Part shown: piece after piece, positions 2,678 to 8,634 of the stretch
Layout: every line of letters begins with the position of its first letter
Numbering within the stretch: the stretch's first letter is position 1
DNA from: a virus
Taxonomy: Duplodnaviria > Caudoviricetes
Length of the DNA stretch: 31,008 bases
Strand: one strand, 5' to 3'
Virus record (IMG/VR): IMGVR_UViG_3300020042_007756
Span: 1 to 31,008 of that record
Made by a program: the position numbers and the translations under genes
Notes under the pieces: generated by a model
The model's input: only the letters and a program-made list of their open reading frames with translations
Databases searched by the model: none
Told to the model about the DNA's origin: nothing

Positions 2678-3026
2678 ATTCGTTGTTGAGTAGTTTTCTT
2701 AAGTTAGCCGCTACTTCAAACTCTTCTGATTCAATTGCGAACTGAATCCAAAGTTCAATAGTTTGTCCTATGAATAACCAATTTTGTAAGTATATCTCAC
2801 CGTCAGTTAATTGCGAGAAATCATATGAGTAAGTATCAATCTTAAAACAAAGTATCTTAACTTTTCTATTTGAAATAAACTCTTTAACAACTCCATTAAA
2901 GTAACAATCAAGTATCTCAAATAGAATTGTTGTTACCTCATCCTTTATATCAACATCACTTTTCCACTTTCTGAGATAGTCAGGCACATAAATTGTTTCT
3001 GCTATTTTTCTTTTAAGTTCTTCCAT
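2670..3026 (-). CDS. Hypothetical protein with C-terminal UVR (UvrB/UvrC)-like motif
   Basis: AIESEEFEVAANLRKLL fits the A..E.FE.AA.LR pattern. Confidence 0.55.
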   Translation of the reverse strand: MEELKRKIAETIYVPDYLRKWKSDVDIKDEVTTILFEILDCYFNGVVKEFISNRKVKILCFKIDTYSYDFSQLTDGEIYLQNWLFIGQTIELWIQFAIESEEFEVAANLRKLLNNEYA

Positions 3027-3045
3027 ATTAAATATATATATTAAC

Positions 3046-3699
3046 TTAATCCTTATACCTAAATCTAAGTCTTTTGTGTTTCTTATTTAAATAACCACCG
3101 TTATCACACGACTTTTGAACAATATTTCTACTGATTTTATGTTCAGCAGCTGCCATTCTAAGAGAGATATACTCTTTAATTGTAACACCTGAACTATCAA
3201 TCTGTTCAACAGTTCTACCTTTTCTGTAAGAACCTTTAACAACAAACTCACCAGTCATCATTCTGTTTAGTTCTAACAACATATATTGTATCTGTTGGTC
3301 TGGTTCTAAACTTGAATATTTATTCTCGTTATTTACACAATCCATATAAATGTGTGCAATCTTAAAAGGGTCTACAGGGTTAAAAAGGTTCCAACGAAGT
3401 TTAACAAGTAAGATTTTGATTTGTGGTGTCCATTGTCTAATGGTTTTACTTGCATTCTTAGGCATCTGAGATTTTCTATAAGATTGACTGAAGTTACCTT
3501 CAATAGCAAAGCAATGTCTACAAAGAGTTTTACCAATAGTTGTAAAGAATCTTCTATTACAATTCTGACACTTGCTGTGGTCTTGTTTACTTAAGCCTCT
3601 ACACTTTGAACACTCAGTCATGTCTTCTTTTTGAGTAAGAGCCTTTTTATTACAGGTTTTACAGATAAAAGGTTTTCCTTTATAAACATACTTTTCCAT
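3046..3699 (-). CDS. Zn-finger plus NUMOD1-like DNA-binding protein (likely start MEKYVY at 3699)
   Basis: Four CxxC pairs at the N-terminus; C-terminal VEQID...EYISLRMAAAEHKISRNIVQKSC...FRYK resembles NUMOD1. Confidence 0.65.
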   Translation of the reverse strand: MEKYVYKGKPFICKTCNKKALTQKEDMTECSKCRGLSKQDHSKCQNCNRRFFTTIGKTLCRHCFAIEGNFSQSYRKSQMPKNASKTIRQWTPQIKILLVKLRWNLFNPVDPFKIAHIYMDCVNNENKYSSLEPDQQIQYMLLELNRMMTGEFVVKGSYRKGRTVEQIDSSGVTIKEYISLRMAAAEHKISRNIVQKSCDNGGYLNKKHKRLRFRYKD

Positions 3700-3704
3700 A
3701 ATTG

Positions 3705-3738
3705 TTATACTCAACTTTTTTGAATTTGTTGGATATAA
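3705..3738. promoter_or_regulatory. Overlapping divergent promoter-like motifs: CAACA-N16-GTATAA (minus) and CAACT-N16-ATATAA (plus)
   Basis: Variants of the recurrent motif with 16-nt spacing, between divergent genes starting at 3699(-) and 3778(+). Confidence 0.5.
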
Positions 3739-3777
3739 ATTAGACGGCAATGCCGCTAAAATAAAAACTTAAATTTT

Positions 3778-4386
3778 ATGCGTGAAAAAACAAAAGTCGA
3801 GTTAACAAAACTCGCAGAGATTATGGTATCAAAGTATCAAATCAATGAAATCAAAGGAACAAATATCTTACTCGAATATGCTTTAACAGAAGCAAGAAGA
3901 AACGATATTCGTATAGATGTTCAATCTATTAGAAAGTATGAAAAATGGTTAGAAGTAAAGTGTTTAGACTTACAAGGTCACATTGATTATATGGCGTCAC
4001 AAAGTAAATCTATTGAAGAAGAAGTAGATGATGAGTTAGAAGATGATCATAACTTTTATGATTGTTACGGTGATGTAATAGATGATATGTCAATTCTTCA
4101 TAAAGCAATCGAGATAATGAGTAGGTTTACAAATGATGATTCAACCTCTACGGTAAGTCAGTCTTATATTGGTCAAAAATTTCCTGACTATTCTATGTTT
4201 GTTGTAAGTGAGGATGGCCTAATGGTAGTTAAAGGTTCATATAAAGGCAGACTATTAGACGAAATAGATGAGGTTAATTTTAAAGGTGCGAAAAGAGGAT
4301 GGGCTAAATGGTGTTTAGAAAACGACAAGAACCTAACAGACGATGATAGAGATGTCTTTAAAAAGATAATGATGAATCAGATGTAA
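3778..4386 (+). CDS. Hypothetical acidic protein; C-terminus weakly resembles the G(K/S)YKG..L.EI...W module (DUF3820-like)
   Basis: 202-aa ORF followed by a terminator; KGSYKGRLLDEID...WAKWCLEN. Confidence 0.7.
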   Translation: MREKTKVELTKLAEIMVSKYQINEIKGTNILLEYALTEARRNDIRIDVQSIRKYEKWLEVKCLDLQGHIDYMASQSKSIEEEVDDELEDDHNFYDCYGDVIDDMSILHKAIEIMSRFTNDDSTSTVSQSYIGQKFPDYSMFVVSEDGLMVVKGSYKGRLLDEIDEVNFKGAKRGWAKWCLENDKNLTDDDRDVFKKIMMNQM

Positions 4387-4393
4387 TCACAAC

Positions 4394-4423
4394 GAGACGA
4401 CTTGAGGGTCGTCTCTTTTTTTT
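4394..4423 (+). terminator. Rho-independent terminator
   Basis: GAGACGACT-TGAG-GGTCGTCTC stem followed by T8. Confidence 0.9.
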
Positions 4424-4482
4424 GCAATAAATAATCCAACTTTCTAAACTTTTTATTTTTTTTGAATATACATTAACATAAC

Positions 4483-4912
4483 AGGCAATCAAAAGCAAAT
4501 AACAAGCACAAATCAAAAGCAATTAACGGATTTACTACAGAGCGGGGCACGACAACGCTGGCTGTATGTATCTAATCGCGATACCAGGAGGACTATACGA
4601 ATCGCAACTATAGAGTTTAAGTCAGAAGTAGTATGTATAGCGGAGGATCTCAAACCTTTGAAAGTTGCTGACCAATCACATACAGAGATGCTATGTGTGC
4701 GACCGACACTTGTAATCAGAAAGAAAGATTATTGATGGAGGTAGAAAGATTCTAAGCAAGTTTAATCACTTGTAAGGAATGAAGTCTGCTTCCCTCTACT
4801 TGAATCAGAAAAAAGGATTGCCCACCATACCAGCAACATCATTTAACAATCTTAACACGAGTTGAAGTGTGAGCCCACACGGAAACGAAACTCGTGATGA
4901 TGGATTATGCCT
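4483..4912 (+). ncRNA. Putative large structured non-coding RNA (~430 nt), class unknown
   Basis: No ORF of 60 aa or more; visibly richer in G+C than its flanks; about ten nested stems, long-range pairings, and G-U wobbles favouring the + strand. Confidence 0.6.
4487..4527 (+). repeat. 17-nt direct repeat AATCAAAAGCAA(A/T)TAAC, two copies, 24-nt period
   Basis: Copies at 4487-4503 and 4511-4527 with one mismatch. Confidence 0.8.
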
Positions 4913-4919
4913 TAGTGGA

Positions 4920-5123: not shown

Positions 5124-5153
5124 CAAAGATACTAAAACTTTTCGAACTACAAA
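5124..5153 (-). promoter_or_regulatory. Bacteroidota housekeeping-type promoter TTTG-N18-TATCTTTG
   Basis: Fits the -33 TTTG / -7 TAnnTTTG consensus upstream of the ATG at 5102. Confidence 0.7.
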
Positions 5154-5184: not shown

Positions 5185-5319
5185 GATGAGTGGTGTTGAA
5201 ATCTCATCGTATATTATTTGACGCAATATATTTATTTTACAAATCAACACCAACACTTTCTAATGTGTAAAACCCGACTATCAATTTGAATTGCCGTTTA
5301 AGTAAAGTCGGGTTTTTTT
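5185..5319 (+). ncRNA. Possible small structured RNA (~135 nt)
   Basis: Lies between the promoter motif and a terminator; stems TGGTGTTGA/TCAACACCA, GATGAG/CTCATC and TATATT/AATATA. Confidence 0.4.
5269..5319. terminator. Bidirectional terminator-like hairpin
   Basis: AAAACCCGACT...AGTCGGGTTTTTTT with a long loop, at the end of the 5318..5503(-) gene. Confidence 0.7.
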
Positions 5320-5503
5320 ATTTAAGACCTTTAGTCTTTTCAAACTCTTTAGACCAGAACTCCCAGTCTATTGACTCGTCTTCATTTTTAAGTCGAGTCT
5401 TAGTCTTCTTCTTATTCTCTTCATCGATACACAACTGCCATAGTTGTTCATCAGTTAGCTTTTCTTCTTTCATATTAGGATTAAGAAAAGTTTGAGAATC
5501 CAT
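5318..5503 (-). CDS. Hypothetical protein (likely start MDSQ at 5503)
   Basis: Charged ORF overlapping the end of 5481..5750. Confidence 0.55.
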   Translation of the reverse strand: MDSQTFLNPNMKEEKLTDEQLWQLCIDEENKKKTKTRLKNEDESIDWEFWSKEFEKTKGLK

Positions 5504-7884: not shown

Positions 7885-8015
7885 CGGCCAGTATATTAAA
7901 AGTGTTCTTTATAAATGGAACTGCTGAAAACATAAGTGTTGAATCATATTACAGAGCAAAGAAAAGAAGACAAAAAATAAAAAAACTTTATGAAAACACC
8001 AAACAGTTGGAATGA
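7881..8015 (+). CDS. Small hypothetical protein (44 aa, MTASILKVFF...KQLE), absent from the ORF track
   Basis: ATGA overlap at 7881-7884; fills the gap before 7990. Confidence 0.5.
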   Translation: MTASILKVFFINGTAENISVESYYRAKKRRQKIKKLYENTKQLE

Positions 8016-8634
8016 TATCACGGTCGGTCAATATCAAGAACTACTATTAGTAGAAACAGAAAACAAAATAAGTCAGTCTATAGAAAAGATTGCAATAATT
8101 TGTGATTGTGACCCAGAAGACATTAGAGCCTTACCTTATGGTGAGTATTTAAAATTAAGTGAAAAGTTAAGTTTTATAGATGTTGAACCTAAAGGTGAAG
8201 TAGAAACAAAATTAGAGATTGATGGTATAGTTTATGGTTTAGAACCTGAGATGAACTTAATGTCAGCAGGTGTATTCACTGATGGTGAACAATTTAAACA
8301 AGACCCTATTGTAAATTTACATCTAACACTGGCTCTTATTTATAGACCTATAACTAAAGACTTAGATGATAGTTATGAGATTGAACCACATAAAGCACAG
8401 GGATTTGAAAAAAGAGCAAATCTCTTTAGAGATAGACTAAGTATACAGACCGTGTTAGGTGCCTGTCTTTTTTTTTCGACTCTCGGAATAGAATTATCAA
8501 TAATTTCTCTGGAATCTTTCAACACAATGATGAAGGAGGAAGTTCAGACGATGACGACAGCGATGACCCCAACACCTACGAAGACGCGCAAGCAGAAGCG
8601 TTCCAAAAAAGGTGGGGTCTCTACCACACAATAG
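7990..8634 (+). CDS. Tail assembly chaperone (gpG-like, zero-frame product)
   Basis: P.SW.DITVGQYQ N-terminus; slippery T9 run in the LFF codons. Confidence 0.65.
   Translation: MKTPNSWNDITVGQYQELLLVETENKISQSIEKIAIICDCDPEDIRALPYGEYLKLSEKLSFIDVEPKGEVETKLEIDGIVYGLEPEMNLMSAGVFTDGEQFKQDPIVNLHLTLALIYRPITKDLDDSYEIEPHKAQGFEKRANLFRDRLSIQTVLGACLFFSTLGIELSIISLESFNTMMKEEVQTMTTAMTPTPTKTRKQKRSKKGGVSTTQ

Follow-up and report, generated by a model that had tools for sequence, protein, structure and literature searches.

The largest gap between open reading frames (ORFs) in the analyzed phage genome is occupied by a pseudoknotted fold of about 430 nt (4483–4912, + strand), which is likely an RNA and for which we favor, with moderate confidence, the role of primer RNA of an initiator-free, ColE1-like replicon. 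The broader claim that it serves the replication origin in any way is considered probable. Comparison of homologous sequences confirmed the structured element, which is raised above chance by covariation and not by folding stability. Many small phage genomes are devoid of a recognizable replication gene, and the element represents a concrete candidate for the replication start in some of them. Whatever its function, its 140-nt core with three crossing helices would be a new family of structured RNAs that lends itself to cryo-EM or crystallography. The term "window" denotes the whole stretch of phage DNA that was analyzed (31,008 nt).

The ORF-free gap and its surroundings

The window represents the genome of a small tailed phage, in which genes for the large terminase, portal, head protease and tail fiber as well as a sigma-like gene were recognized (PHROGs, Pfam). 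No replication gene was recognized among the 32 proteins compared with PHROGs and the 25 compared with Pfam, in agreement with the lack of such genes stated in the initial annotation. The claim that the element lies in the largest ORF-free gap was likewise borne out, as the stretch 4387–4919 (533 nt) is the longest in the window without ORFs of at least 55 aa and the runner-up measures 144 nt; the maximum stop-free frame inside the gap comprises 89 codons. The completeness of the record is rated at 68%. Because the 44.5-kb record G006 (behind locus L025) repeats after about 33.7 kb with unchanged gene order, the window record probably lacks no more than about 3 kb, from the tail region. The self-repetition of G006 may be a reason for the rating of 68% that relatives of 31–35 kb received.

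The host presumably belongs to the Bacteroidota, as suggested by promoter-like sites and by a relative of a sister-phage protein that is encoded in Flavobacterium marginilacus. Sites like TTG-N18-22-TAnnTTTG, which we take to be the promoter consensus of Bacteroidota, precede the leftward genes of the window. A relative of the phage is located on a 33-kb contig in a Gammaproteobacteria MAG (L041/L042), which is likely mis-binned and provides no host evidence. Blastn searches against GenBank phages and plasmids returned short chance matches only, those to plasmids covering at most 6% of the query. The cumulative GC skew turns near 3800, where it coincides with the switch of gene direction, and was left out of the argument.

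The following features (all + strand) lead into the element:

3778–4386 (+), 202-aa ORF with function not known, directly upstream of the element; context, not an obligate partner
4394–4423 (+), intrinsic terminator of the 202-aa ORF with a 9-bp stem (4394–4415) and a T run, separating the ORF from the element
4446–4471 (+), putative phage promoter of the AAAC[AT]-N13-17-ATATA type, proposed from motif recurrence
4483–4535 (+), 5' leader, rich in A, in which AATCAAAAGCA and (G)GCAAT motifs occur

The 202-aa ORF has no match in PHROG, Pfam or Atlas. Its homologue precedes the RNA in L051 alone, L002 and L054 carry other ORFs there, and partial homologues are present in L001 and L040, both without the RNA. 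The upstream terminator of the initial annotation was retrieved as the stem at 4394–4415; it is present in L051 and absent in L002. Equally, the reported motif AAACT-N15-ATATAC was found at 4446–4471. The promoter motif precedes the element also in L051 and L002, i.e. in three of the four homologues including the window, as well as the window genes at 5153 and 5791. Given that it also precedes the terminase and capsid genes, late expression of the element is possible. Motif types scanned on the minus strand of all homologues revealed no antisense promoter inside the element. Within the leader, AATCAAAAGCA is conserved in all four homologues, as is GCAAT at a distance of 11–17 nt 5' of the first helix. 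The proposed pairing of the 5' GGCAATC with 4816–4822 is indeed possible over 7 bp in the window and 6 bp in L051, and L002 has a different 11-bp pairing. In L054, a 43-codon ORF (292–423, +) passes through the leader and terminates inside helix P1; no comparable started frame was seen in the other three homologues.

Comparative evidence for the fold

Collecting homologues, which the initial annotation had named as a check, yielded three full ones outside the window. L051 is 85% identical to the window over the whole element, L054 is a diverged homologue from another phage group, and L002, whose terminase is 85% identical, has at the same place a stretch that is free of ORFs and folds strongly (z -5.05), its primary sequence showing hardly any similarity. 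The family comprises these four sequences and partial contigs, L054 being a 4-kb and L002 a 12-kb fragment, and a core of about 140 nt with seven conserved helices is common to them. Freshwater and lake runs yielded contigs covering the element. The contigs of RNA run X7 match the upstream ORF (3763–3987, 4081–4329) and not the element, and at their low depth they indicate presence only; no contig of run X2 aligned.

The search pattern for the 3' hairpin was derived from the window and L035 and matched 12 viral sequences, five of which were kept (L045 and L046, which are the same in sequence, L047, L051 and L054); the other seven were judged by context to be chance matches. A second pattern scan gave at least 94 distinct matches, and among the 15 outside long open frames L113 (= L002) alone was real; a third gave 30 matches with L197 (= L051) and L054 as the real ones; a fourth gave 74, of which the model recognized L255 (= L051) alone, L054 having been left out of the input. 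No fifth full homologue emerged from further pattern scans and two covariance models, and the four-sequence model detected none in 69 sources (546 kb), nor in 14 sources with the filters off. An RNA search of 25 whole records missed the known L002 element, and its negatives were not counted.

The core and the 3' part of the element (all + strand) are composed as follows:

4536–40/4562–66 (+), helix P1, paired in all four homologues
4541–44/4556–59 (+), helix P1a, with compensatory changes together with P1
4558–61/4584–87 (+), pseudoknot K1, CTGG with CCAG, paired in all four
4578–82/4601–05 (+), helix X, paired in all four
4593–98/4635–40 (+), helix Y, which crosses X, paired in all four
4607–11/4628–32 (+), helix Z, paired in all four
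4641–46/4655–60 (+), helix H with an 8-nt loop, paired in all four
4621–25/4668–72 (+), K2, the loop of Z with the region downstream of H, paired in all four
4677–4822 (+), variable domain with a hairpin (4677–97) and a long G-U-containing rod (4737–93) that pairs in each homologue
4821–4837 (+), CCCACCA motif followed by ACCAGCAAC, marked by its enrichment upstream of TV-Pol genes
4856–4896 (+), two-stem 3' hairpin, identical in L051, L054 and L047

The pseudoknotted core spans 4578–4672 (+), and P1, K1, X, Y, Z, H and K2 pair in all four homologues, with compensatory changes in seven helices across the four sequences; the covariation check thus came out in favor of the element. In X, Z and H, which were drawn by eye from the same four sequences with alignment starts chosen by the analyst, four being few, 64 of 64 cells are paired and 8 of 16 pairs are altered on both sides, a degree of pairing that was reached by none of 500 column shuffles, and slid controls pair at 33–52%. 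Across three sequences, P1, P1a, Y, Z and H show 77 of 78 cells paired and 7 of 26 pairs altered on both sides (P1 and P1a together: 3 of 9). K1 reads CTGG/CCAG in three homologues and CCAG/CTGG in L002, and Y is represented by CTATAC/GTATAG versus ACACG/CGTGT without a pair that is invariant across the four. A model built from the window, L051 and L054 recovered L002 (6603–6747, +) with an E-value of 2e-5 in 465 kb, the next match having 0.19. Lake contigs that were not used for drawing, grouped by equal depth and one of them with a depth of 3, show co-changes with retained pairing at 4609/4630, 4610/4629, 4644/4657, 4645/4656 and 4646/4655; among the matches listed, changes at 4632 (end pair of Z) and 4640 (end pair of Y) break the pairing. 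A structure-only pattern built on the four sequences matches only them in 4.05 Mb of loci (both strands, redundant).

Folding stability by itself is weak support. The whole element has a z-score of -1.88 on the + strand, with 3 of 100 shuffles as good, and -0.34 on the - strand. The rod reaches -2.9 on + and 0.0 on -, and the 3' hairpin -3.7; the core alone (+1.3) is no better than shuffles because nested folding cannot model crossing helices. These values (-1.9 for the whole element, +1.3 for the core) and the limited number of four full homologues would be in line with a decayed gene or chance folding. This explanation is largely refuted by the compensatory changes in seven helices, the independent recovery of L002, the absence of the structure-only pattern from 775,200 shuffled bases and the lack of an ORF of at least 55 aa.

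The secondary structure drawn in the initial annotation missed the pseudoknots, and the core of P1, P1a, K1, X, Y, Z, H and K2 was not part of it. Its stems are present in the sequence, three of them without comparative support. GTATC/GATAC shares bases with two helices that covary and does not hold in L051. For TAATC/GATTA, L051 loses 2 of 5 pairs in the register tested. The long-range GTTGCTG/CAGCAAC is letter-identical in L051, i.e. without covariation, and overlaps the covarying K2, so that it could form an alternative fold. Its G-U wobbles had been taken as a sign of RNA-level selection; the G-U pairs of helices H and Z identify the + strand as the structured one and do not separate RNA from single-stranded DNA. 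The fold is likely RNA.

The rod was found in all four homologues with unrelated sequences. CCCACCA and ACCAGCAAC represent a candidate origin element near the putative switch from RNA to DNA; in its exact form CCCACCA is absent from L054 and L002. The 3' hairpin, a candidate DNA-level origin or primosome assembly site, has covarying variants in L045, L035 and L280 and is absent from L002. It also occurs without the RNA, namely on a hairpin-only contig in run X8 and in L045/L046 and L047. Two identical 31-nt hairpins that resemble it (CACACG..AACGAAAC) are located in L001 (4756–4786, 5108–5140), each adjoining a leftward gene.

The slot shared with a polymerase-fold gene

L054 and L047 form a natural pair with either RNA or protein between the same flanks. 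On either side of the slot, L054 (3–212 and 840–3022) is 81% identical to L047. The slot of L054 contains the RNA and then the hairpin, that of L047 the hairpin, inverted relative to the flanks, and then a 325-aa gene (2864–3841), the 3' hairpin being kept by both. The swap is documented by this one clean pair. The 325-aa protein has 382 relatives, and its structural model (pLDDT 87) obtained 48 listed Foldseek matches, all of them family-A DNA polymerases, with a best E-value of 5e-4 and a TM of about 0.3 by query. R147, D175, K225 and H294-D295 are invariant or nearly so, and the protein exhibits the minimal family-A polymerase core, the conserved Arg, the two Asp and the RxxxK of TV-Pol. 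The TV-Pol motifs are described in PMC2579912, where the family is predicted to act as primase-polymerases; for the staphylococcal CcPol, PMC10061031 reports primase activity only together with its partner MP. The L047 protein is thus predicted to be a TV-Pol-like primase, and its family is probably an undescribed phage replicon. It has no match in GenBank phages, and the PDB sequence search gave a best E-value of 0.74. L047 2864–3841 and the loci L276–L298 have no Pfam match and a PHROG E-value of 0.04 only, with AAAGTGA repeats and an AT-rich tract upstream.

In the complete 30.9-kb sister genome G004, the TV-Pol-like gene is the sole replication gene recognized, and no linked helicase or SSB gene was recognized. 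AAAGTGA repeats occur on the hairpin strand upstream of the TV-Pol genes at 12 of 19 loci versus 9 of 154 background segments. CCCACCA is present in the 450 nt upstream of these genes at 7 of 19 loci on the hairpin strand, compared with 1 of 19 on the other strand and 7 of 154 in the background, and 5 of 16 TV-Pol gene starts have the promoter motif at a distance of at most 70 nt, versus its presence in 2 of 192 coding windows. The hairpin HMM retrieved 2 of 23 TV-Pol loci, one of which is L047 itself, and a looser motif was seen at 4 of 19. In L045, a covarying version of the hairpin precedes a 392-aa gene with weak similarity to the 325-aa family (hhalign E 2e-4, probability 45%).

The two contents of the slot were not found together: TV-Pol is absent from all four RNA-bearing records, and the RNA has no match in the 23 TV-Pol loci. 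Among the RNA-bearing phages, the record G001 comprises almost the entire circle, and a PHROGs comparison of 14 of its ORFs assigned a replication function to none. The near-complete genomes of this type have no recognized initiator and many small ORFs without known function, one of which could be an initiator. L025, from the window's own group, has in its slot the gene of a 198-aa protein (7994–8590) with an internal repeat (15 bp × 5.8). Its composition is suggestive of an iteron-type initiator, with weak HTH/DnaD-type leads and Atlas scores all below 0.9; a homologue is absent from the three RNA-bearing records tested. Small proteins with tandem DNA repeats within the gene, also suggestive of iteron-type initiators, are encoded in L040 (6118–6702) and L038 (1350–1907). 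The early region of L001 encodes a helicase. L035 has the hairpin and neither the RNA nor a recognized initiator in the slot (1028–1598), where several GATC-rich palindromes and further hairpins accompany the shared one. The slot of L030 has neither the RNA nor a recognized initiator; its different ORF-free fold (1120–1412, +; z -3.36) with long crossing complementarities and no match to Rfam or to the covariance models R1 and R2 may represent a second family of RNAs.

In the window, L051 and L002 the element is oriented toward a convergent gene, and in L054 it runs opposite to the early genes; because of this orientation it is not the 5' leader of a gene.

Functional readings and a second structured element

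The absence of matches to known RNA classes, as stated in the initial annotation, was corroborated for tRNA, tmRNA, RNase P, introns and small ribozymes. Rfam 15 (4227 models), which covers tmRNA, RNase P, group I and II introns, small ribozymes, ROOL, GOLLD, HEARO and ARRPOF as far as it holds them, has no match in the window at gathering score and three chance-level matches at E of at most 10 (E 1 to 7), none of them within 4483–4912. On the homologue loci the best match is Betaproteobacteria-1 on L002 (29 bits against a threshold of 49, E 0.13). ARAGORN found no tRNA or tmRNA gene in the window. No reverse transcriptase or IscB/TnpB gene that would point to a retron, DGR or OMEGA RNA was recognized among the 32 (PHROGs) and 25 (Pfam) window proteins. 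The idea of a new class of large phage ncRNA is therefore strengthened by a conserved, structured element without an Rfam match. A full-text literature search, with most subscription journals and the supplements of PMC5737381 outside its reach, found no paper describing the RNA, and two 2026 preprints on ncRNA discovery contain no replication-related passage in their texts exclusive of supplements.

The element would represent a new RNA family that works most like ColE1 RNA II and the initiator RNAs of mycobacteriophages, without being either. According to the relevant passages of PMC7157519, ColE1 RNA II primes Pol I, and mycobacteriophage prophages devoid of repA have RNA-based origins; those of PMC5778457 treat hairpins as primosome assembly sites and the use of R-loops by PriA. 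The likeness to RNA II, as far as these passages describe it (PMC7157519, PMC5778457), consists of the lack of a recognized initiator, in records that are incomplete and rich in ORFs with no known function, a likely RNA fold of several hundred nt that would be read toward a hairpin, and the absence of a 3' terminator; a use of host Pol I and PriA by the element would extend it. Unlike RNA II, the element is pseudoknotted, has no long G tract and no overlapping antisense promoter was found; moreover, it resides in a tailed phage with a presumed Bacteroidota host, and priming is proposed for it by analogy. The cluster A mycobacteriophages without RepA resemble our case: in the account of PMC7157519, the replication slot holds a protein initiator in some sister phages and a noncoding RNA region (about 400–500 bp) in others. 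They differ in that no parABS or other temperate genes were recognized here and in that the exchanged protein has a polymerase-A fold and is not RepA-like; replication was shown for their RNA origins (PMC7157519), whereas the element is known from sequence only. ARRPOF, PAGEV and GEBRO are long structured motifs tied to plasmid replication regions, and for ARRPOF a gene-free region is sufficient for replication without rep (main text of PMC5737381). With 223–349 nt and a plasmid location in that text (PMC5737381), they are distinct from the phage-borne element of about 430 nt, which has no Rfam match. TV-Pol is the protein counterpart of the element in L047 and not the element itself.

In the proposed mechanism, RNA polymerase would start near 4446–4471 and transcribe across the element, whose 3' end is free of a terminator. 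The knotted core and the rod would fold co-transcriptionally, and the 3' part would stay on the template as an R-loop around CCCACCA. Host RNase H or run-off would leave a 3' end for extension by host DNA polymerase I, and the 3' hairpin, exposed on the displaced strand, would allow PriA-type restart proteins of the host to assemble a primosome. At the same origin in phages of the L047 type, primer synthesis would fall to the TV-Pol-like protein. If priming is true, RNA-primed replicons would extend beyond ColE1 plasmids and mycobacteriophage prophages to a presumed Bacteroidota host, with a fold unlike that of RNA II and possibly a compact protein-free replicon for Bacteroidota genetics. The initial suggestion of a primer like ColE1 RNA II gains from the predicted primase gene at its place in a sister phage and from the lack of a recognized initiator. 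It found no counterpart in homology, as Rfam has no match to RNA II or RNA I and no plasmid match exceeds 6% of the query, nor in an overlapping antisense RNA I, for which the motif types scanned yielded no minus-strand promoter capable of producing an overlapping transcript across all homologues and the only candidate is a separate small RNA with short complementarity. Several observations stand against the primer reading: L002 has neither the shared hairpin nor CCCACCA, L035 and L030 replicate by means outside the model, the longest G run in any homologue is 4–5 nt, the overlapping antisense promoter was not found, the promoter motif also precedes the terminase and capsid genes, and the swap is represented by one clean pair, with the hairpin in 2 of 23 TV-Pol loci.

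The positional evidence would equally fit an origin element that does not prime, i.e. an RNA scaffold or aptamer recruiting host replication proteins or a fold in single-stranded DNA, which we consider unlikely. The asymmetry of G-U or G-T pairs sets the strand and not the polymer, plasmid replication motifs could act as single-stranded DNA according to the text of PMC5737381, and three crossing helices seem more elaborate than priming needs. Against this reading stand the promoter motif at the same place in three of four homologues and the short crossing helices of 4–6 bp with conserved G-U pairs, which fit RNA better than DNA. Slightly less probable still is a trans-acting ncRNA outside replication (a regulator, protein decoy or anti-defence RNA) in a variable slot for module exchange at the hairpin. 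The high variability of the slot is compatible with it, as are the occurrence of the hairpin alone and in either orientation, which could mark an exchange point or terminator, the complementarity of the leader GGCAAT to the loop of a hairpin upstream of the terminase genes, and the presence of the promoter motif before structural genes. It leaves unexplained why the gene lost in L054 corresponds to the only recognized replication gene of G004 and why RNA-bearing genomes have no recognized initiator.

A ribozyme or reduced, selfish intron-like element is very improbable. Its appeal is the crossing order X5'-Y5'-X3'-Z-Y3'-H in all four homologues, which presumably resembles P3, P7, P8 and P9 of group I introns if X, Y, Z and H are compared with them. 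In group I introns, the P4-P6 domain separates P3 from P7, and P7 contains an invariant pair for G binding; the 10–11 nt between X and Y leave no room for P4-P6, Y is without an invariant pair, and Rfam has no group I, group II or ribozyme match. The element interrupts no gene, sitting between a terminator and a convergent stop codon, and no splice joint across it is present in the contigs compared.

Control of copy number or timing is a further part of the primer reading and relates to one more feature:

5185–5320 (+), second conserved structured element and candidate small RNA, with a long hairpin, a UGCC-tipped loop and a T run

This second element is conserved in L002 (7274–7415), and its hairpin is kept in L051 (7250–7312). 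The terminator stem differs between the window, L002 and L051 and pairs in each of them around the invariant GAATTGCCGTT. The RNA leader contains the complement of GAATTGCCGTT, letter for letter in L051 and L002 and in degenerate form in the window; this complement recurs in the leader of the 202-aa ORF. From these complementary sites, 5185–5320 could be a trans-encoded inhibitor of the large RNA that might, as a weakly supported step, exert control by pairing with GGCAAT in the leader; the sites are accounted for just as well by a DNA operator located shortly downstream of promoters. Energies of the small RNA/leader duplexes (-13 to -18 kcal/mol, with no shuffle control) are no better than those of cross-genome pairs, both sides being invariant, and were not used as evidence. 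As a tentative and rather doubtful proposal, the findings might be united by a novel class of initiator RNAs with pseudoknots, exchangeable with a minimal polymerase-A primase at a shared origin hairpin in freshwater phages. Such an RNA might make its own primer end or load host Pol I through its knotted core, and pairing of the UGCC loop of the small RNA with the leader would hold it in check.

In the window and L002 a possible pseudoknot precedes the small-RNA hairpin (5185–90/5203–08, 5192–99/5244–51). ACGGCAAT follows closely on the promoter of the 202-aa ORF (window 3745–3752, L051 2885–2895), and the same motif is found at the start of the large RNA of L051; these sites could be an antisense target or a DNA operator. 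Similar hairpins, with long GAAT(T/A)GCC loops and freely varying stems, are carried without the large RNA by L001 (3920–3980, -), L030 (960–1000) and L025 (7815–7890, -).
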